This document shows, piece after piece, positions 2,204 through 47,998 of a stretch of 64,000 bases of DNA (position 1 is the first letter of the stretch; each line of letters starts with the position of its first letter). Origin of the DNA: an uncultured Gemmatimonadota bacterium. Its GTDB lineage: Bacteria > JAAXHH01. The position numbers and the translations under genes were made by a program. The notes below the pieces were generated by a model, which was not told the DNA's origin, did not search any database, and worked only from the letters and a program-made list of their open reading frames with translations. The stretch spans positions 160,001 through 224,000 of the forward strand of contig OX638340.1 in NCBI GenBank assembly GCA_951812955.1. Reading direction: 5' to 3'.

Positions 2204-2800
2204 CTAAGCAGCATTAAACCACCACTCCGGCCACCCGAGCACCAGTTCCGCCAGCGCGGAGTATCCGCCAGCGCCCGGATGAACCCGGTCACCGAGTGCG
2301 GCTTCGCTCCGCCAGACCTCACCGGTATTCAGATCATGGATCACCTCGAGGTAGGGCACGCCGAGTCTTCCGGCGATTTCGCCGATGAGCGAAGAAACCT
2401 CCATCCTGCGGCCGTGTTCCTCCTCGTCGATCCCGGGCGGCGGTCCGATCATCAACGTGGGTAAAAGCGATCGCGCGCGTGACAGAATCTCTTCGGTGTT
2501 GCGCACGGTATCGGCCCGTTCCACGCGCGGCTTCCCATCTATGAACCAGCAGTCGTTTGCGCCGAAGCCGAAGACCACCCGGCCGTCATGAGGTATAAGG
2601 CGCCTGGCCTCGACTTCCCGTTCCCATCGCCGGAGCACGTCCGCGCTCGTGTCACCGCGAATGCCGAGATTGTAGCTCGTGATGGAGGTTTCGTCGGACC
2701 TCGATGCGGCACACGCGCGCCCCGGCCATCCAAGATAGGCGGGATCACCGGTACCGTTCACGTAGGAATCACCTATAAAGTATACACGAATGTCTTCCAT
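2204..2800 (-). CDS. SGNH/GDSL-family hydrolase (lipase/esterase-like)
   Basis: 198 aa; N-terminal FIGDSY(V)NG block = GDS(L) serine motif; GxND and DxxH blocks later (FGANDC, DRVHP). Confidence 0.65.
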   Translation of the reverse strand: MEDIRVYFIGDSYVNGTGDPAYLGWPGRACAASRSDETSITSYNLGIRGDTSADVLRRWEREVEARRLIPHDGRVVFGFGANDCWFIDGKPRVERADTVRNTEEILSRARSLLPTLMIGPPPGIDEEEHGRRMEVSSLIGEIAGRLGVPYLEVIHDLNTGEVWRSEAALGDRVHPGAGGYSALAELVLGWPEWWFNAA

Positions 2801-12884: not shown

Positions 12885-14240
12885 ATGGCCAATGTCCTCC
12901 TGCTCATGTCCGACGAGCACAATCCGTTCTACGCTTCAGTCTACGGCCATTCCTTCGTGCATACCCCGGCCATGGACCGGCTCGCGGAGAACGGGGTCGT
13001 CTACGAGAGCGCCTACTGTCCCTCGCCCCTGTGCACGCCCAGCAGGTCCGCCTTCATGTCGGGACGCCGGGTCCACCAGATACAGGCCTATTCCAACTGC
13101 ACAATCGGCGTGGAGCCGGATATACCGACCTATGGACGCGCCCTGGCCGAACAGGGGGTTCATTCCGTGCACGTGGGCAAGACCCACGTTTACGCTCCGA
13201 GCAGTGGACTGGGATTCCGTGAGACGCGGAACGCCGTGGAGAATATGGGCGCCGGCGATCTGGAAATCGGCCGCCGTCCTTTCCGTATCAGGCGAGCGGC
13301 CGCGGAACGGGCCACCCAGTTCGGCGTGAAAGCATCGCATCTCCGGGTCGACCTGGACCGCGTCGACGCCGCCATAGACTGGATATCAAATACCGCGCCG
13401 ACCCTGGATACGCCGTGGACGCTCTCGGTAAACATCATCCATCCCCACTTCCCCCACTATACGTCGCAGGAACTCTGGGATCTCTATCCGCAAGGCGGCG
13501 ATCTGCCGGAGTACGGGACGGATCGGGAGACTGCGAACCACCCCAGGGCACGGGAAGTCAGGGAGCACTTCCAGACGGACGCGTTCACCGAGGAACAGGT
13601 ACGGGGACAGCGGCGGGGATACCTGGCGTGCGTGACGTTCGTGGACCGGCAGCTGGCGCGGCTTATCGAAGCGCTGAAGGCATCGGGACAATACGACGAT
13701 ACGAATGTCATTTACACGTCGGACCACGGCGAAATGCTTGGAAAGTTCGGCATGTGGTGGAAGTGTTCTCTCTACGAAGACGCGAGCCGGATCCCATGCA
13801 TCGCGGCGGGACCCGATTTTCCTGCGGATCTGCGCGTGTCGACGCCGGTGGACCTCCACGATGTACAGGCGAGCCTCTTCGAATCGACCGGCGCCGACCG
13901 TCCAATCGACTGGGTGGGGCGGCCTCTGCAGAACATGCCCGAACAGGATGACCAGCGCGTCGTTTTCTCCGAATACCATGGCCACGGCGTTCGCCAAAGT
14001 GCCTTCATGATCCGAAAAGGCAGATGGAAGTACATTCACCACCTTAACGCGCCGCACCAACTGTTCGACCTGGACCGGGATCCCGATGAACTGCAGAACG
14101 TGCATGGCGCGTGCGCCGAGGTGGCCGCAGACCTGGAGCGGGAGCTCCGCGCGATCTGCGATCCGGAAGTGGAGAACGACCGCGCGGATCGATTCATTGA
14201 AACGCAACTTGCGTCCATGTCGTCGAGTGGCCCATCGTAG
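12885..14240 (+). CDS. sulfatase (Cys-type)
   Basis: 451 aa; CTPSRSAFMSGR signature; begins 9 nt after upstream stop. Confidence 0.85.
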   Translation: MANVLLLMSDEHNPFYASVYGHSFVHTPAMDRLAENGVVYESAYCPSPLCTPSRSAFMSGRRVHQIQAYSNCTIGVEPDIPTYGRALAEQGVHSVHVGKTHVYAPSSGLGFRETRNAVENMGAGDLEIGRRPFRIRRAAAERATQFGVKASHLRVDLDRVDAAIDWISNTAPTLDTPWTLSVNIIHPHFPHYTSQELWDLYPQGGDLPEYGTDRETANHPRAREVREHFQTDAFTEEQVRGQRRGYLACVTFVDRQLARLIEALKASGQYDDTNVIYTSDHGEMLGKFGMWWKCSLYEDASRIPCIAAGPDFPADLRVSTPVDLHDVQASLFESTGADRPIDWVGRPLQNMPEQDDQRVVFSEYHGHGVRQSAFMIRKGRWKYIHHLNAPHQLFDLDRDPDELQNVHGACAEVAADLERELRAICDPEVENDRADRFIETQLASMSSSGPS

Positions 14241-14285
14241 CGAGCCCATCGTAACAAGCCCATCTGAATAAGCAAACGGAGCGAA

Positions 14286-15695
14286 ATGAGCGGGAAACGA
14301 TTGCTAGGAATCACCGTTCTGGCCGACTTCATCCTGAACGAGGGGGTGGAGTCCGTGCTGGACAATCTCGTCGAACGGGCCGGCGCCACAGCCGTGGCGC
14401 TGAACCCCACGGTGACCGCGCCGTCGGAGGAGGGGGCCGGTTCCTTCCAGCCACCCACCGACGCCGGAAGCAGTCCAAGGCTCTTCGATCGTCCCCTGTG
14501 GGGCCGGCGCTCGCTCTGGGTCCGTAGCGCGCCCAGTTATCACCCCCGAACCTCGTACTATGCCGATACTCCGTACAAGCCCCGCGCGCCGAACGAGTTG
14601 ACCGACGAGCATGGCGATCTGGTCGGACGATTCATCGACGCGGCCCTGGACCGGGGACTCAAGGTCTACCTGCAGTTGAGCGGCGCGACGCCACCCGGAC
14701 TCCTGGACGACGACCGGCCGCGACGGCCGGACGGACAACTGCCGGACCGCATGGCCGACACGGGATGTCTCGCCAGCGAGGCGATCCGGGCTTACATCGC
14801 GGCCTACGTGCGCGACCTGTTGGAGCAGTACCCTCGGATTACAGGATTCCGGCCGGACTGGCCCGAGTATCCCTGTTACAAGCTGGACGAAGCCTTTCAG
14901 GATTTCAATCCACAGGTGGCGCACTGGGCGGCGGCCCATGGATTCGACTACGCGTCCATACACCGGGAGGTCCTGGCGGCGTTCGAATATCTGCACGGAC
15001 GGCTCGAGAACGGTGATCTGCTGGACTTCAGCGGTCCCGGCCGGGGCACGGCGACGCTGGCTGAACTGCTCCGTTCCTCACCGGGTATCGTGGAGTGGAT
15101 GCGCCTTAAGTCCGCCCTGTCCAACGACCTGCTGCGCCACTGGAGGACCGTCGTCACGGACCATGGCGGACCCGAAATGGAGCTGTCTGCCAACGCCTTC
15201 ATGCTTCCGCTCACCCTGTGGACGGGCTTCGATTTCCGTGAAGCGGCGAAACTCTGCGACGCCCTGTCTCCCAAGCTGTATACCATGCACTGGTCGGTCA
15301 TGGTGGAATTCTGGGGGCGGGTACTCCTGAAGCACAATCCCGGCCTGGACGAGCGGCTTCTGGTGCGTTCGCTCGCCCATCTCTTCGACCTGGGCGATGA
15401 AATCACGGCCACACGCATCGATCAATACAGGTATCCCGATCCCGACGAGCCCCATCCCATTCCCGACAACGTCCAGAGTCGGCGGATCGAGCAGGTCTGC
15501 GCCGAAGTGAACGGCCGCGCGTTGGTCACCCCGCTGATGCACGGTTACGGCCCGCACCACGACTTCGTCCGGCGTTTCAGGGTGGTGGCGGAAAGCCCGG
15601 CCGATGGCGTATGGATCAATCGTTACGGGTACCTCAGCGACGAAAAGCTGGATGCGGTGGGGCGCATATGGCGGCGAGCAGACCGAGCAACTTGA
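14286..15695 (+). CDS. hypothetical protein (possibly a TIM-barrel glycoside-hydrolase-like fold), embedded between sulfatases
   Basis: 469 aa; no signal peptide obvious; no family recognisable by eye. Confidence 0.45.
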   Translation: MSGKRLLGITVLADFILNEGVESVLDNLVERAGATAVALNPTVTAPSEEGAGSFQPPTDAGSSPRLFDRPLWGRRSLWVRSAPSYHPRTSYYADTPYKPRAPNELTDEHGDLVGRFIDAALDRGLKVYLQLSGATPPGLLDDDRPRRPDGQLPDRMADTGCLASEAIRAYIAAYVRDLLEQYPRITGFRPDWPEYPCYKLDEAFQDFNPQVAHWAAAHGFDYASIHREVLAAFEYLHGRLENGDLLDFSGPGRGTATLAELLRSSPGIVEWMRLKSALSNDLLRHWRTVVTDHGGPEMELSANAFMLPLTLWTGFDFREAAKLCDALSPKLYTMHWSVMVEFWGRVLLKHNPGLDERLLVRSLAHLFDLGDEITATRIDQYRYPDPDEPHPIPDNVQSRRIEQVCAEVNGRALVTPLMHGYGPHHDFVRRFRVVAESPADGVWINRYGYLSDEKLDAVGRIWRRADRAT

Positions 15696-25516: not shown

Positions 25517-26302
25517 ATGGGCATGGTCCGTCTTACAGACGAGGACATCCGATTCTTCGTCCGCGAAGGCTACCTGATCAAACGCGGCGTGCTGAACCCC
25601 GACCTGATGGCCATGGGACGGGAACGCATGTGGCGGAATCTGCCGCCTCCCCTCGAACGCGGTAAACCGGCAACCTGGATCGGACCCTTTGCCGAACCGG
25701 TCGACGACGGCGCGTCCCACAGGCACAGGTTCATGTGGAAGTACCGGGAACCCGGCGGAGAGGACTGGATGTTGCGACTCCTGGCCACCGATCCTTCCGT
25801 GATGGGCATGGCGGAACAGCTCCTGGGGGAAGGAACGCTGGTCGACCCAGATCGCATCCGCGGTATTTACTGCGTCCTGCCCGAGGGCGACGCACCGCCC
25901 CGTCCCCTGGGTTGCCACGTGGACGCCCATCCCTTTCACCTCGGCGTCGTGGGATACATCGACGACGTGAGTCCGAAGGGTGGCGGATTCACCGTCTGGC
26001 CGGGCAGCCATCGGATATTCTATCCCGATTTCCCCACGCGTTACTGCTTCGAACGAACCCCCTCGTACCAGGCGCACCTGGAAGAGGTGAACCGGATGCC
26101 TTACGCAGACTGTCACGGCAATGCCGGAGACATCGTCTTCTGGCACCACCGCATGGGCCATTCAGTCGGCCACAACCGGTCCACCCGGATCCGCCAGGCG
26201 GTCCTCTACGACTACAAGCGGACGGACCTGGACGAGAACGCGCCTCCCGGCGACAACATGTGGGTGGATTGGCCCGGCGTCCGTGCCGTTTTAGCATCTT
26301 GA
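25517..26302 (+). CDS. phytanoyl-CoA dioxygenase (PhyH) family Fe(II)/2-oxoglutarate oxygenase
   Basis: 261 aa; PhyH-like N-term (DIRFFVREGYLI), metal-binding HVDAHP and distal His. Confidence 0.6.
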   Translation: MGMVRLTDEDIRFFVREGYLIKRGVLNPDLMAMGRERMWRNLPPPLERGKPATWIGPFAEPVDDGASHRHRFMWKYREPGGEDWMLRLLATDPSVMGMAEQLLGEGTLVDPDRIRGIYCVLPEGDAPPRPLGCHVDAHPFHLGVVGYIDDVSPKGGGFTVWPGSHRIFYPDFPTRYCFERTPSYQAHLEEVNRMPYADCHGNAGDIVFWHHRMGHSVGHNRSTRIRQAVLYDYKRTDLDENAPPGDNMWVDWPGVRAVLAS

Positions 26303-26396
26303 CATGTGGGTAGACTGGCCCGGCGTCCGTGCCGTTTTAGCATCTTGACATGTGGGGTAGACTGGCCAGGCGTCCGTGCCTTACTGGCGTCTTGAA
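26256..26396. repeat. three tandem ~46-bp copies of the last 14 codons + stop of the PhyH gene (third copy degenerate)
   Basis: ACATGTGGGTGGATTGGCCCGGCGTCCGTGCCGTTTTAGCATCTTG at 26256-26301, near-identical copy 26302-26347, diverged copy 26348-~26396; copy 1 contains the genuine TGA stop (26300-26302). Confidence 0.8.
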
Positions 26397-26399
26397 TCC

Positions 26400-27263
26400 C
26401 TACTCGAAGTAGCGGCCCACGATCGGCTTCAGCTTCTCCAGCGTGCCGCCGGGTACCGAATCCCGGTCGGAAACGATGGCGTTGGCCAGCGCGTTGTGAC
26501 AGCGGCACGTGCTTTCCACCGGGATGGCCGGCACCACGTGGCGGACGACCTGCCGCGCCTGTTCCACGTTGGCGTGCAGGTTCTCGATGATCATGTCGAC
26601 GGTGACGGCGTCGTGATCTTCGTGCCAGCAGTCGTAGTCGGTGGAACACGCGATCGTGGCGTAGCAGATCTCGGCCTCCCGGGCCAGCTTGGCTTCCGGC
26701 GCGGCCGTCATGCCGATGACCGAGAACCCCCAGCCCCGGTAAACGTTCGATTCCGCCCTGGTCGAGAACTGGGGTCCCTCCATGCAGAGATAGGTGCCGC
26801 CGTCATGTACCGTCAACCCCGTCGATTCAGCGCCGTCGACGAGCAGTTTGCGCAAGGGGCCGCAAAAGGGTTCGGCGAGGCCCACGTGCACGACGAGATC
26901 GTTGCCGAAGAAGCTGGTCGCGCGGTGCCGCGTATGGTCGTACAGCTGATCCGGAATGACGAAGTCCCGCGGACGTATGTGCTCCTGGAGACTGCCCACC
27001 GCGCTGACCGACAGGATCCACTGCACGCCCAGCGTCTTCAGCGCGAAGATGTTCGCCCGCACGTTAATTTCAGACGGCCCGATGCGGTGGCCGCGGCCGT
27101 GACGTGCCAGGAAAGCCACGCGCCGGCCCTCGAGGGTGCCGGTCACGATTGCGTCGCTGGGATCGCCGAAGGGGGTGGCGGGCCGGACCTCCTTGAGATC
27201 CGTCAGGCCTTCCATACCGTAGAACCCCGTGCCGCCGATAACCGCGATCTGCGCGTTCGCCAT
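26400..27263 (-). CDS. mtnP: S-methyl-5'-thioadenosine phosphorylase
   Basis: 287 aa; N-terminal IAVIGGTGFYG and MTAP-characteristic blocks (RHGRGHRIGPSEINVRANIFALK; CMEGPQFSTRAES). Confidence 0.85.
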   Translation of the reverse strand: MANAQIAVIGGTGFYGMEGLTDLKEVRPATPFGDPSDAIVTGTLEGRRVAFLARHGRGHRIGPSEINVRANIFALKTLGVQWILSVSAVGSLQEHIRPRDFVIPDQLYDHTRHRATSFFGNDLVVHVGLAEPFCGPLRKLLVDGAESTGLTVHDGGTYLCMEGPQFSTRAESNVYRGWGFSVIGMTAAPEAKLAREAEICYATIACSTDYDCWHEDHDAVTVDMIIENLHANVEQARQVVRHVVPAIPVESTCRCHNALANAIVSDRDSVPGGTLEKLKPIVGRYFE

Positions 27264-27413: not shown

Positions 27414-27491
27414 GATCGGCGAGTTCAGGGATAGATGTACCTGGAAGCAGCCTCTGTCGACCGATCTATCTGGTTATCCCGAATCGACTAC

Positions 27492-27842
27492 ATGTCATAC
27501 CTTCCCCTTATCCTGCTCGTCCTGCTTGTCCTGATCGTCGCGGCCGTAATCATTACCCTTTCTACTTTCATAGGCAGAAAAAAAACGAGCGCCTCCAAGC
27601 TTGCGTCCTACGAATGCGGTGTTCCGCTTCAGGACTCCGCCCGGAAGAGCTTCTCCGTCAAGTTCTACCTGATCGCAATCCTTTTCATTCTTTTTGACGT
27701 GGAGATCATTTACCTCTACCCATGGGCCGTCGTTTATGGCGATCTTCAGGTATTCGGCGCATTAGCCATGGGGGTGTTCTTTCTGATGCTTGTCATCGGA
27801 TTCCTGTACGAATGGAAACGGGGAGCCCTGGAATGGGATTAG
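27492..27842 (+). CDS. nuoA: NADH-quinone oxidoreductase subunit A
   Basis: about 116 aa from ATG 27492; 3 TM helices; YECGVP and [11 protein letters not shown] NuoA motifs. Confidence 0.85.
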
Positions 27843-28303
27843 AAGACCAGCTTCAGGAAAACGTCATGACCACCAAGGTCGACGCGATGGTCGGCTGGGC
27901 CCGGAAAAATTCGCTCTGGCCGATGCCTTTCGGCACCGCCTGTTGCGCCATCGAACTCATGGCGACGCTGGCCTCCCGGTTCGACCTGGCCCGTTTCGGA
28001 GCCGAAGCCATACGGTTTTCCCCCCGGCAGTCCGATCTGCTGATCGTTTCCGGGAGGGTTTCCATCAAGATGATGCCCGTACTGAAGACGATCTACGACC
28101 AGATGCCGGAACCCAAGTGGGTCGTCTCCATGGGAGCCTGTGCCTCCTCTGGCGGCGTATTCAATACCTATACGCTAGTGCAGGGCGTTGACCAGTATAT
28201 CCCGGTGGATGTGTATATCCCGGGTTGTCCCCCCAGGCCCGAAAACGTGATCCAGGCGTTGATGAAGATCCAGGAGAAAGTGGCCCAGGCCAAAGCGAAC
28301 TGA
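27833..28303 (+). CDS. nuoB: NADH-quinone oxidoreductase subunit B
   Basis: [13 protein letters not shown] ... [10 protein letters not shown] ... GCPPRPE (N2 cluster Cys motifs); ATG 27833 overlaps nuoA end (alternative ATG 27866). Confidence 0.9.
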
Positions 28304-28944
28304 TGAACAGAAAATCCATCGCAGAGCTTCTGCTCGACATCAAAGCAGTCACCATCAACGTCGAAGCCCCCTACCATTACAGTTCCGGTATAATATCTCC
28401 TATATATTGCGATAACCGCCTGATCATATCCTGTCTGGAAGAGCGCAAGGTGATCGTCGACGCATTTATCGAGATCATCGACGCCCTCGAAGTTTCGCCG
28501 GATGTCATCGCGGGAACGGCGACCGCCGCCATCCCATTCGCGGCGTGGGTATCGAACCGCCTGGACCTGCCCATGGTCTATGCGCGTTCGGGACAGAAAG
28601 GCTACGGCAAGGAACACCGGGTCGAGGGCACCCTGGTCCCCGGTCAGAAGGTGCTTTTCACCGAAGACCTGGTCACCACGGGTGGGGGCGTGCTGAAAGC
28701 GGTCGAAGACGTGGTCAGGTTCGACGTGGAGGTGATCGGCGTGGCCACCATTTTCGAGTACGGCCTGCCCGCCGCCACGGAGGGATTCCAGAAGGCCGGT
28801 CTGCCGAAATGGAGCATGGCGGACTTCGTGGCCATTCTGGACGTCATGAGTGAGCGGGGCGAGCTTTCGGACGACAGTAGAGACATCGCAATGGACTGGC
28901 AATCGGATCCCAGGGGCTGGGGCAGCAAGATGGGTTTCGAATAA
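28303..28944 (+). CDS. pyrE: orotate phosphoribosyltransferase
   Basis: 213 aa from ATG overlapping nuoB stop (TGATG); PRPP-binding loop VLFTEDLVTTGGGV; type I PRTase fold. Confidence 0.8.
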   Translation: MNRKSIAELLLDIKAVTINVEAPYHYSSGIISPIYCDNRLIISCLEERKVIVDAFIEIIDALEVSPDVIAGTATAAIPFAAWVSNRLDLPMVYARSGQKGYGKEHRVEGTLVPGQKVLFTEDLVTTGGGVLKAVEDVVRFDVEVIGVATIFEYGLPAATEGFQKAGLPKWSMADFVAILDVMSERGELSDDSRDIAMDWQSDPRGWGSKMGFE

Positions 28945-28955
28945 AGGGGATTGAA

Positions 28956-29492
28956 GTGGAGAACCAGGAGGAACGCCAGACCGAGGGCGTTGATCCGCAG
29001 GAGCCGGACCAGGGCGAGGTAACGGCGCGAATCCGGGCCCGGTTCGTCGACGCGTCGGTCCGGCGCGGCAACGCGGTGGGGTGCGAGAGTGTCATCGCCG
29101 AGCTGGATTCGCTTCACCCGTTCATGACCTTTCTGAGAGACGATCCGGAATTGGCTTTCGATTATCTCGTCGACGTGACCGCCGTGGACCGGTTGAAGCT
29201 CGACGAGGCCATCCGTTACGCCGTAGTCTACCAGCTGTATTCCTACAAATTCAACCGCCGTTTCAGCGTAAGCGTTCCCGTTCCGGAAGCAGACCCCCGG
29301 ATCGAGTCGGTGGTGTCTGTCTGGCCTGGCGCGAACTGGCTGGAACGGGAAGTGTACGACATGTACGGGATCGTCTTCGACGGCCATCCCGACCTGCGCC
29401 GCATCCTGATGCCGGACGACTTCGGCTCGCATCCCCTGAGGAAGGACTATCCCCTTCACGGCAAAGGGGAAAGGGACAACTTCGTTTTCTAG
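28956..29492 (+). CDS. nuoC: NADH-quinone oxidoreductase subunit C
   Basis: 178 aa; 30-kDa subunit blocks (PGANWLEREVYDMYGIVFDGHPDLRRIL). Confidence 0.9.
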   Translation: MENQEERQTEGVDPQEPDQGEVTARIRARFVDASVRRGNAVGCESVIAELDSLHPFMTFLRDDPELAFDYLVDVTAVDRLKLDEAIRYAVVYQLYSYKFNRRFSVSVPVPEADPRIESVVSVWPGANWLEREVYDMYGIVFDGHPDLRRILMPDDFGSHPLRKDYPLHGKGERDNFVF

Positions 29493-29525
29493 CCGGCCGT
29501 TCGCGATGGACACGGCCAGGCCCCT

Positions 29526-46063: not shown

Positions 46064-47998
46064 ATGAACCTGTATCTCCGAATACTGTCCTATGTAAAGC
46101 CCTACTGGTACTTCATGGCCGGCGCCATGGTGTGCATGGCCTTCTTTGCGCTGACCAGCAGCGCAACGGTCTGGGTGGCCCTGCCCTTTCTGCAGACCCT
46201 GTTCGGCCATCAAACCGTACAGACGGACCAGTCCGGGCAGACCGGGCAAACCGTACAGACGGACCAGACCGGGCAGTCCGGGCAGACCGGGCAGTTCGAC
46301 TTGGCGCGGGATTCGGCGAACCGGTTGGAGCAACGGGCCGGGATGGCGGGCCTGCGCGAGTCGTTGAAGGATCGCACCAACGCCCTGATCACCCGGCCGA
46401 CCAGGCAGGCTACGCTGGAACGCCTCTGCCTGATCATCCTGTTCATCCTCCTGATCAAGAACATCAGCAGTTACCTGCAGGCCTACCTGATGGCCTACGC
46501 CGAGAACGGGGTCATCAAGGACCTACGGAACCATCTCTATATCCACCTTCACCGCCTTTCCCTGTCCTACTTCCACCGTGAACGCACGGGAGAGCTCATC
46601 TCCCGCGTGTCCTACGACGTCATGAAGATCAACGGGACGGTTTCCGCCGCCTTCGGGACGTTGATCAAGGAACCTATGCTGGTGGTGGTCTACCTCGCGA
46701 TCCTCTTGATCCTGAGCTGGCAATTGACGCTGGTCTCCCTGGTGCTTCTTCCCTTCAGCGTCCTCGTCATCACCACGGTGGGCAGGCGGCTGCGCCGGAG
46801 CAGCACCGCCTCACAGGAAGCCATGGCCGATCTGACCTCGACGCTCCAGGAGACCGTGGCCGGCGTACGGGTGGTCAAGGCCTTCAACATGGAATCCTTC
46901 GAGATCGGCAAGTTCAAGCGGCAGACCCAGCATTACTTCGCCACGCTGCTTCGACTGACCCACATGCACAACCTGGCCAGCCCCATCACGGAGATCCTGG
47001 GCAGCTTCGTCGGCCTGGCGATCCTCTGGTACGGCGGCCGGCAGGTCCTCGAAGGCGGCCTGCTTGCTCCGGAGGATTTCCTGACATTCTTTCTCGCCCT
47101 CTTTTCCATGATGAAACCGGTCAAGGAACTCGGACAGGTGCACAACCGAATCCAGGAGGGAATCGCGGCCGCCGACCGCGTGTTTTCGATCCTGGACACG
47201 GCGCCCGAAATCACGGACGCGCCCGAAGCGGAGCGGCTTCCCGACCTGCGGCGGGAAATCCGGTTCCACCGTGTTGCCTTCCGGTACGACAGGTCCGCCG
47301 AACCCGCCCTTGAGGATATCGATCTCGTGGTCCGATCGGGAGAGACCGTGGCCCTCGTGGGACCGAGCGGTGGTGGCAAGTCCACCCTGGTTGACCTCGT
47401 CGCACGGTTTTACGACCCGACCTGCGGGCGTATCGAGATAGATGGGAAAGACCTGCGTTCGGTCACCGTGGCGTCCCTCCGGGACAAGATGGGCATCGTG
47501 ACACAGGACGTGATCCTGTTCAACGACACGGTCCGCAACAATATCGCTTACGGCGTGCAGGACATGCCCGTGGACCGGATACAATCCGCCGCGGCTGCTG
47601 CCAACGCGGATGCCTTCATCGACCAGTTGCCCGATGGATACGAAACATATCTCGGGGAACGCGGCGTGCGTCTCTCCGGGGGCCAGCGCCAGCGTATCGC
47701 GATCGCAAGGGCCATCCTGAAGGATCCCCAGATCCTCATATTCGACGAGGCCACCTCCAGTCTGGATACCGAGTCCGAACTGCTGGTCCAGGAGGCCATC
47801 GACCGGTTGATGGCGGGGAGGACGGCCCTGGTCATCGCCCATCGCCTGTCGACCGTGCAGAAGGCGGACCGGGTGGTCGTGGTCGACCGTGGCCGTATCG
47901 TGCAGACCGGCGATCACGGATCGCTGATCCGGGAAGACGGCCTGTACCGGAAGCTCTACAATCTGCAGTTCCGGGACCAGGAACCCGTCGCGGAATAA
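46064..47998 (+). CDS. ABC transporter, fused permease/ATPase, MsbA-like (lipid A/LPS export type)
   Basis: 644 aa; 6 TM then Walker A GPSGGGKST, signature LSGGQRQRIAIARA, Walker B ILIFDEATSSLD; Q/T/G-rich insert in first external loop. Confidence 0.8.
   Translation: MNLYLRILSYVKPYWYFMAGAMVCMAFFALTSSATVWVALPFLQTLFGHQTVQTDQSGQTGQTVQTDQTGQSGQTGQFDLARDSANRLEQRAGMAGLRESLKDRTNALITRPTRQATLERLCLIILFILLIKNISSYLQAYLMAYAENGVIKDLRNHLYIHLHRLSLSYFHRERTGELISRVSYDVMKINGTVSAAFGTLIKEPMLVVVYLAILLILSWQLTLVSLVLLPFSVLVITTVGRRLRRSSTASQEAMADLTSTLQETVAGVRVVKAFNMESFEIGKFKRQTQHYFATLLRLTHMHNLASPITEILGSFVGLAILWYGGRQVLEGGLLAPEDFLTFFLALFSMMKPVKELGQVHNRIQEGIAAADRVFSILDTAPEITDAPEAERLPDLRREIRFHRVAFRYDRSAEPALEDIDLVVRSGETVALVGPSGGGKSTLVDLVARFYDPTCGRIEIDGKDLRSVTVASLRDKMGIVTQDVILFNDTVRNNIAYGVQDMPVDRIQSAAAAANADAFIDQLPDGYETYLGERGVRLSGGQRQRIAIARAILKDPQILIFDEATSSLDTESELLVQEAIDRLMAGRTALVIAHRLSTVQKADRVVVVDRGRIVQTGDHGSLIREDGLYRKLYNLQFRDQEPVAE
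46211..46294 (+). repeat. in-frame 36-bp tandem repeat (2 copies + 12-bp partial) inside the MsbA-like gene
   Basis: CAAACCGTACAGACGGACCAG(T/A)CCGGGCAG(A/T)CCGGG x2 then CAGACCGGGCAG; encodes QTVQTDQSGQTG-QTVQTDQTGQSG-QTGQ. Confidence 0.8.

Follow-up and report, generated by a model that had tools for sequence, protein, structure and literature searches.

A three-copy tandem repeat of a PhyH-family gene end between convergent bacterial genes, probably the relic of an old stop-codon-spanning duplication

Several described systems resemble the repeat array reported here. Minisatellite-like arrays, which change by slippage, unequal crossover and gene conversion, share with it head-to-tail units of fixed period, variable copy number, hybrid internal copies, a distal tail at the array edge that escapes homogenization, and internal deletion between short repeats (as at locus L009, below); they differ in that the unit here is the 3′ end of a protein gene together with its stop codon, the first copy being under protein-level selection and apparently acting as a template that conserves the heads of the relic copies. 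Integrative elements duplicate the 3′ ends of tRNA, tmRNA and protein genes as attL and attR, and the likeness lies in there being more than one copy of a gene end, a functional one and then displaced ones. Here, however, the copies are contiguous, the relatives carry no element at this junction, no integrase was detected there, and viral contigs yielded no attP-bearing element. In compact animal mitochondrial genomes (for example PMC4430869, PMC5122201), intergenic spacers derive from the duplicated ends of neighboring genes, in line with the tandem duplication-random loss model. A tightly packed genome, a new spacer made when flanking gene sequence is duplicated in tandem, and a redundant copy that decays are common to that model and to the present case, although here the convergent protein genes lie on a bacterial chromosome, only 46 bp are involved, and gene order is unchanged. 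Finally, the intrinsic or bidirectional terminators of convergent genes occupy the same place, between two convergent stop codons, but their hairpin and U-tract are absent from this site. Our literature search returned no account of the PhyH-mtnP locus or of bacterial stop-spanning duplications, the mitochondrial tandem duplications being the only analogue found. The kind of feature, a short tandem duplication with concerted evolution, is well known; the present example, with its history across the lineage, is new without being surprising.

The stretch of DNA analyzed, referred to as the window, is 64,000 nucleotides of a contig (OX638340.1) from an uncultured Gemmatimonadota bacterium. The anatomy of the array can be read directly from it: positions 26257-26395 are made up of three head-to-tail units (46, 46 and 47 nt) with zero bases between them (Table 1). 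The first, c1, belongs to the open reading frame of a PhyH-family gene, runs CATGTGGGTGGATTGG...GCATCTTGA, and lies in a frame that ends AAC ATG TGG GTG GAT TGG CCC GGC GTC CGT GCC GTT TTA GCA TCT TGA. The second, c2, departs from c1 by two substitutions (GTGGAT to GTAGAC), and the third, c3, by one extra G (in the run at 26354-26357), by CCC to CCA, and by GTTTTAGCA to TTACTGGCG; the c3 tail is like the gene end of L004 and L084, the window's closest relatives, which have a single copy. Tandem Repeats Finder reports the array at 26256-26380 (period 46, 2.7 copies, 94% matches), its score of 220 being the highest of any tandem repeat in the window, and a second repeat search of the window recovers the same three copies. 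There is no further match to either the whole unit or its 17-nt head within the 64 kb when up to three mismatches are permitted, and 100 shuffled sequences gave no match to the 46-nt unit. A dispersed repeat of the REP or MITE type was accordingly rejected, no other copies being present within 64 kb at three or fewer mismatches.

Table 1. Window coordinates of the convergent genes, the three repeat units and the remaining spacer.
Feature	Coordinates	Strand	Description
PhyH-family (phytanoyl-CoA dioxygenase-like) gene	25517..26302	+	261 aa; stop TGA 26300-26302; PF05721, E 1e-9
Unit c1	26257-26302	+	46 nt, functional end of PhyH (MWVDWPGVRAVLAS, then stop); last 14 codons plus TGA
Unit c2	26303-26348	+	46 nt, non-coding relic, recombinant (c3-type head, c1-type tail)
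Unit c3	26349-26395	+	47 nt, oldest relic; tail TTACTGGCGTCTTGA
Original 4-nt spacer ATCC	26396-26399		Between the convergent stop codons; same TGA-ATCC-CTA layout in single-copy L004/L084
mtnP (S-methyl-5′-thioadenosine phosphorylase)	26400..27263	-	PF01048; TIGR01694; convergent with PhyH

A preliminary description of this DNA had reported a triplication of a gene end (last 14 codons plus stop) flanked by convergent genes, with a near-identical second copy of 46 bp and a diverged third copy that has a 1-nt insertion and stops 4 nt short of mtnP; all of this agrees with the units in Table 1, c3 being followed by ATCC. It had also set the array apart from CRISPRs, and indeed the units adjoin directly with no unique spacers between them. 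Its placing of a TTGACA hexamer in each unit is correct in part: the hexamer occurs at just the two junctions inside the array (26299-26304 and 26345-26350), and the sequence at the third position is TTGAAT. Nor is it conserved, relatives having CTGACA, ATGACA or TTGACA, the last followed by C (L008/L010) or T (L007). As a promoter it was rejected, being a by-product of the junction that has no -10 partner and is unconserved in relatives; no promoter-like site was found within the array, and a scan of the array for terminator-like sites returned zero. When 26240-26420 was folded as RNA, neither strand proved more stable than shuffled sequences (z +1.26 on the plus strand, +0.20 on the minus strand), and the matches from an Rfam scan run at permissive E-values were all at chance level and far below gathering scores, none of them inside the array. 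An intrinsic terminator or structured RNA was thus also set aside, there being no G+C-rich hairpin with a U-tract and no folding beyond shuffles on either strand.

That c1 is the genuine gene end is apparent from the homologues of PhyH, which stop at the same point (...DWPGVRAVLAS); 496 homologues of the window protein all have this end point, and the motif MWxDWPGV is conserved across them. A look-up of the exact window protein found no record. The convergent gene is identified as mtnP, scoring 319 bits against TIGR01694 (cutoff 274.85), and its stop codon appears as CTA on the plus strand at 26400-26402. Where the relatives are annotated, gene order is unchanged and runs M1 peptidase, PhyH, mtnP, nuoA, nuoB, phosphoribosyltransferase, nuoC, with CSD also among the neighboring genes. 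The phosphoribosyltransferase gene (PF00156) is an observation in its own right, lying between nuoB and nuoC in the NADH dehydrogenase cluster (about 27435-29500 in the window, 5269-6780 in L001), an arrangement kept in the relatives examined.

We compared 31 orthologous loci, drawn from the contexts of the closest homologues, a scan of species-representative genomes and a metagenome scan, the last of which contributed no more than three close loci (L084-L086). The orthologous loci derive from MAGs labeled Latescibacterota, Gemmatimonadetes/Gemmatimonadota or simply 'bacterium', many of them from sponge or coral metagenomes to judge by record name, and several sit on multi-megabase records titled 'chromosome'. 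The PhyH proteins are 74% to 98% identical in amino acids to that of the window. In all 31 loci PhyH lies directly against mtnP, and the ground-state distance between the two stop codons is -8, +3 or +4 nt. The most distant members, L139-L141 (L139 1985-1992, L140, L141 1956-1963; …ACTATTTAA…), in which PhyH is 76-77% identical, have stops that overlap by 8 nt; the gap between the stops is 3 nt in L023/L086 and 4 nt in twelve loci. Duplicated PhyH or mtnP ends make up every longer spacer, except in L007, the middle of which is N-masked, and for an extra segment of 16-17 nt in the spacers of L013 and L019 that is probably a decayed duplicate of the mtnP end.

Copy number varies among these loci. 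The 46-nt unit is present three times in the window, L005 and L014, twice in L001, L002, L006, L008, L010, L013, L015, L019 and L085, at least twice in the N-masked L007, and once in 17 loci. Locus L009 (3283-3315) has 1.6 copies, its second unit being cut by a 17-nt deletion that falls exactly between two GGCGTCC direct repeats, as in a textbook case of slippage; the full second unit is retained in L001, whose identity to L009 is 98.5%. The junction between units reads TGA/CA(T/C)GTGG in 13 of the 14 multi-copy loci and CTTGTGG in L007. As for microhomology at the founding breakpoints, the relatives share only GA (2 nt; ...GA/CATG against ...TGA/) and the window 1 nt. The same spacer also carries small duplications of the 3′ end of mtnP in L006 (3280-3346; TTACTCGATATTCA followed by TTACTCGAAATAG), L085 (1917-1981), L010 (3286-3356) and L022 (3286-3307; AAACGCTCTTCGAGCGG followed by AAACGCTAGTCGAAAT), and in L002 and L014 it contains the 11-nt sequence CTCTCTCCTGA twice in tandem. 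These last two loci (L002 3780-3840, L014 3286-3392) are 99.9-100% identical over 5.8 kb and yet have two and three copies of the unit, respectively, a difference that may be a real polymorphism or a short-read collapse.

The phylogenetic distribution of the copies was read from a neighbor-joining tree built from PhyH without its last 48 nt, plus mtnP. The outgroups (L023/L086, L022 and the clade of L003, L012, L016 and L017) are all single-copy, and multi-copy loci occur only within one inner clade, through which single-copy members (L004/L084, L011, L018, L020, L021 and L027) are scattered. The tails of these single-copy members follow a pattern. That of L004/L084 (GTACTGATGTCTTGA) is like c3 of the window and L005 (T/ATACTGGCGTCTTGA) and unlike c1 (GTTTTAGCATCTTGA); that of L011 (...TTGACCTCCTGA) matches L008 c2 and not L008 c1; and that of L020 (CGCGTTACACCTCTCCTGA) matches L015 c2. 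An unequal exchange between misaligned copies leaves the first head and the last tail, so a distal tail is what is expected of a single copy produced by collapse. The pair L021/L013 does not fit simply into this scheme, and the outgroup tails are too diverged for an ancestral tail type to be assigned by comparison with them. The proximal tail type (GCCGTTTTAGCA...) is common to distant lineages (the window, L002/L014, L013 and L015), from which it follows that the two-copy state is old and that the single copies of the inner clade are secondary. The L004 and L084 records, which are 100% identical over 3.8 kb, have the head GCAGAC; it is in none of the window's units, and their single copy is therefore an allele that has truly contracted, as opposed to an array collapsed during assembly.

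The middle copy of the window is a hybrid of the other two. At the diagnostic head positions it is like c3, and at CCC and throughout the tail (CCC...GTTTTAGCATCTTGA) it is like c1. Denoting heads and tails by h and t, the order (h1 t1)(h3 t1)(h3 t3) has the structure of an expansion product, such as unequal crossover or slippage would generate in a two-copy ancestor of the form (h1 t1)(h3 t3). Locus L005 (OY762445.1, a MAG-derived record of 3.9 Mb titled 'chromosome: 1') has the same three units with a c2 identical to that of the window, and the two are 94.5% identical in nucleotides over 5.8 kb (92.6% at four-fold sites); the expansion is thus older than the split between them and is not an artefact of the window's assembly. 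In L014, the c2 copy is identical to L014 c1.

There is a marked contrast between the two parts of the unit in the relic copies. When the most distal relic is compared with its own c1 at 12 multi-copy loci, the heads differ at 16 of 325 nucleotides (4.9%) and the tails at 76 of 240 (32%), a contrast with a Fisher p of about 1e-17. Identity at four-fold sites averages 0.725 among these genomes, and the heads are about 3-fold better kept than expected for neutral sequence on one branch (roughly 16%; binomial p about 5e-10, with lineages treated as independent, though they are not); the tails would appear to drift at about the neutral rate. The relic heads, 27 nt long and about 95% identical to the coding copy, probably remain this close to c1 because of gene conversion from that copy, which is itself constrained. 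Conversion also explains why L008 has GAG at a variable codon in both c1 and c2, a codon unique among all loci, and why L006 has GCA in both of its copies; selection on the sequence is the alternative, but the covariation in L008 fits conversion and not independent selection. Indels or substitutions in the motif are present in the relic heads of window c3 (+G, CCA), L001 (CCGTCC), L002 (a 1-nt deletion) and L007, as would be expected of decaying sequence. The pair L001 and L009 offers too few sites to serve as a check on conversion. The protein constrains c1 alone, and c1 consequently differs from the relics at synonymous sites or in the C-terminal tail, which is not conserved. The 'synonymous-type' changes remarked on in the preliminary description are thus no sign that the extra copies once coded for protein, the constraint on c1 together with the c3-type head of c2 being enough to account for them.

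We propose, with a probability of about 0.8, that the array descends from an old tandem duplication spanning the stop codon that has since been expanded, contracted and partly homogenized by slippage, unequal recombination and gene conversion. In the wider clade the convergent PhyH and mtnP stops overlap by 8 nt or stand 3-4 nt apart. On this view an ancestor of the inner clade underwent a tandem duplication of 46 bp, reaching from codon Met-248 to the end of the PhyH stop codon; with the stop inside the duplicated stretch, neither gene was broken and the additional copy was left as spacer. Misaligned copies could later have yielded three-copy arrays by unequal crossover or replication slippage, the window and L005 sharing one such triplet, and the same process may have collapsed other lineages to one copy bearing the distal tail. 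Conversion templated by the coding copy would hold the 27-nt relic heads near c1, while the tails, unconstrained both in the relics and in the protein, would drift. The molecular mechanism is inferred and could be slippage or RecA-dependent unequal exchange. A single origin is suggested because the junction is shared, although recombination between lineages could blur the tree, and the wide disparity of some proximal and distal tails (L002, L006, L015 and L085) would also fit a founding event by illegitimate exchange between two diverged alleles. Neutrality is likewise an interpretation: the array is probably an ordinary relic of tandem duplication, and the relic copies are most likely a passive spacer at most, with no function of their own.

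Other explanations were weighed against this history. The preliminary description had favored att-site scars. On such a reading, elements targeting the 3′ end of PhyH would have brought surrogate gene ends and then been lost. The proximal and distal tails do differ as if the gene end had been swapped for a variant, and many of the differences are at third-codon positions, a pattern that the coding constraint on c1 accounts for unaided. When the related genomes were searched for a prophage or island at this point, however, PhyH and mtnP were found without an insertion in all 31 orthologous loci, with no element, integrase or extra gene at the junction and with the synteny from M1 peptidase through PhyH, mtnP and nuoA to nuoB intact. 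Moreover, the copies abut exactly and keep a constant 46-nt register, an outcome not produced when an element integrates and is later excised; viral contigs (IMG/VR), searched for an attP-like copy, gave zero matches to a degenerate 30-nt core of the unit, and a tRNA scan of the window also returned zero. Scars of this kind are therefore largely refuted already, and we regard them as highly improbable. Replication slippage, which had been offered as the other possibility, fared better in that tandem duplication or slippage is supported, though not as one recent slip, the duplication being old and clade-wide and later expanded and contracted. The prospect that relatives would prove single-copy with no history of a mobile element was also borne out only in part, since none has an element and some are single-copy but many are multi-copy. 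It is very unlikely, too, that the triplet is an assembly artefact, whether an expansion or strain variants concatenated in metagenome assembly. The window is probably MAG-derived, the near-identical L002 and L014 differ in copy number, and the closest relatives, L004 and L084, are single-copy, all of which would be compatible with an artefact; against this, the independent L005 record has the same triplet with the identical c2, multi-copy arrays are present in 13 independent assemblies that include several multi-megabase 'chromosome' records, and the L004/L084 head marks a distinct allele and not a collapse. That the array is translated has a negligible chance of being correct. Frame 0 is open from 26303 to 26392, 30 codons past the PhyH stop, and c3 returns to the native frame (46+47 = 93) and can be read as VDWPGVRALLAS before a stop, such that read-through of the TGA at 26300-26302 would give a 31-codon extension ending at the TGA at 26393-26395. 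But L005 has 46+46 = 92 nt, c2 is out of frame in all two-copy relatives, the extra G and the restoration of frame at 93 nt are unique to the window, and an open stretch of 30 codons is unremarkable in DNA of 60+% G+C; the in-frame continuation is best taken as a coincidence.

A use for the duplication is harder to dismiss, although we think it unlikely. The duplication could have been kept for separating touching convergent genes and so lessening transcriptional or ribosomal interference, or the relic head could be a 3′-UTR element of mtnP that lies antisense within PhyH in single-copy genomes. The array persists over lineages with about 27% four-fold-site divergence, its relic heads differ by only 4.9%, and the tiny spacer has been enlarged repeatedly by other means, through the mtnP end in L006, L085, L010 and L022 and through the 11-nt repeat in L002/L014. 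Nonetheless, at least four to five inner-clade lineages have gone back to a 4-nt spacer, all outgroups manage with -8 to +4 nt, the distal heads of the window (c3), L001 and L002 carry indels or substitutions in the motif, the GAG shared by the two L008 copies fits conversion, and there is no hairpin, terminator or above-chance fold on either strand. A stronger version, in which spacers made of gene-end duplicates have been repeatedly recruited and maintained and the 27-nt head works through RNA or DNA, for instance as a 3′-UTR or termination-related element of mtnP that is normally antisense in PhyH, strikes us as decidedly unlikely; if true, the duplication would have uncoupled two overlapping functions.

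Taken as a relic of tandem duplication, the array is by itself of little weight, being a non-coding by-product. Its interest is as a worked example, the roughly 30 orthologous loci showing how a 46-bp array arises, grows, shrinks, loses part of a unit and evolves in concert. Stop-spanning duplications of this kind offer a route by which new intergenic DNA can arise where convergent genes abut in a compact bacterial genome. With open reading frames that touch, only a duplication that includes the stop spares both genes, which is why such duplications become visible here. The other gene-end duplications in the spacer, and a repeat at 14227-14273 described below, fit a general mutational process that shows itself only where genes are left unbroken. 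There is also a lesson for annotation, in that duplicated gene termini alone do not count as evidence of an integration site; the contiguity of the copies and the state of orthologous loci discriminate between the possibilities.

Three further tandem repeats in the window are worth recording. The repeat at 14227-14273 is a second stop-spanning one, with a period of 14 and about three copies, and is located at the end of a sulfatase gene (12885..14240 on the plus strand; PF00884) that finishes GGC CCA TCG TAG and is followed by GCCCATCGTAGCGA, GCCCATCGTAACAA and GCCCATCTGAATAA; the candidate open reading frames downstream of it, 14304..14996 on the minus strand or 14286..15695 on the plus strand, are both without a Pfam match. 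Another repeat of period 14 (TCCGCTCTGTTCTC, 3.4 copies) occupies 2821-2867, about 20 nt upstream of the start of the open reading frame 2204..2800 on the minus strand, and reads on the strand of that gene as GGAGAGAAC..., a series of motifs resembling Shine-Dalgarno sequences. Finally, a nested repeat of periods 9, 18 and 36 with CAGACCGGG-like units is present at 46211-46294, in frame inside the open reading frame 46064..47998 on the plus strand, where it presumably encodes a repetitive peptide segment.
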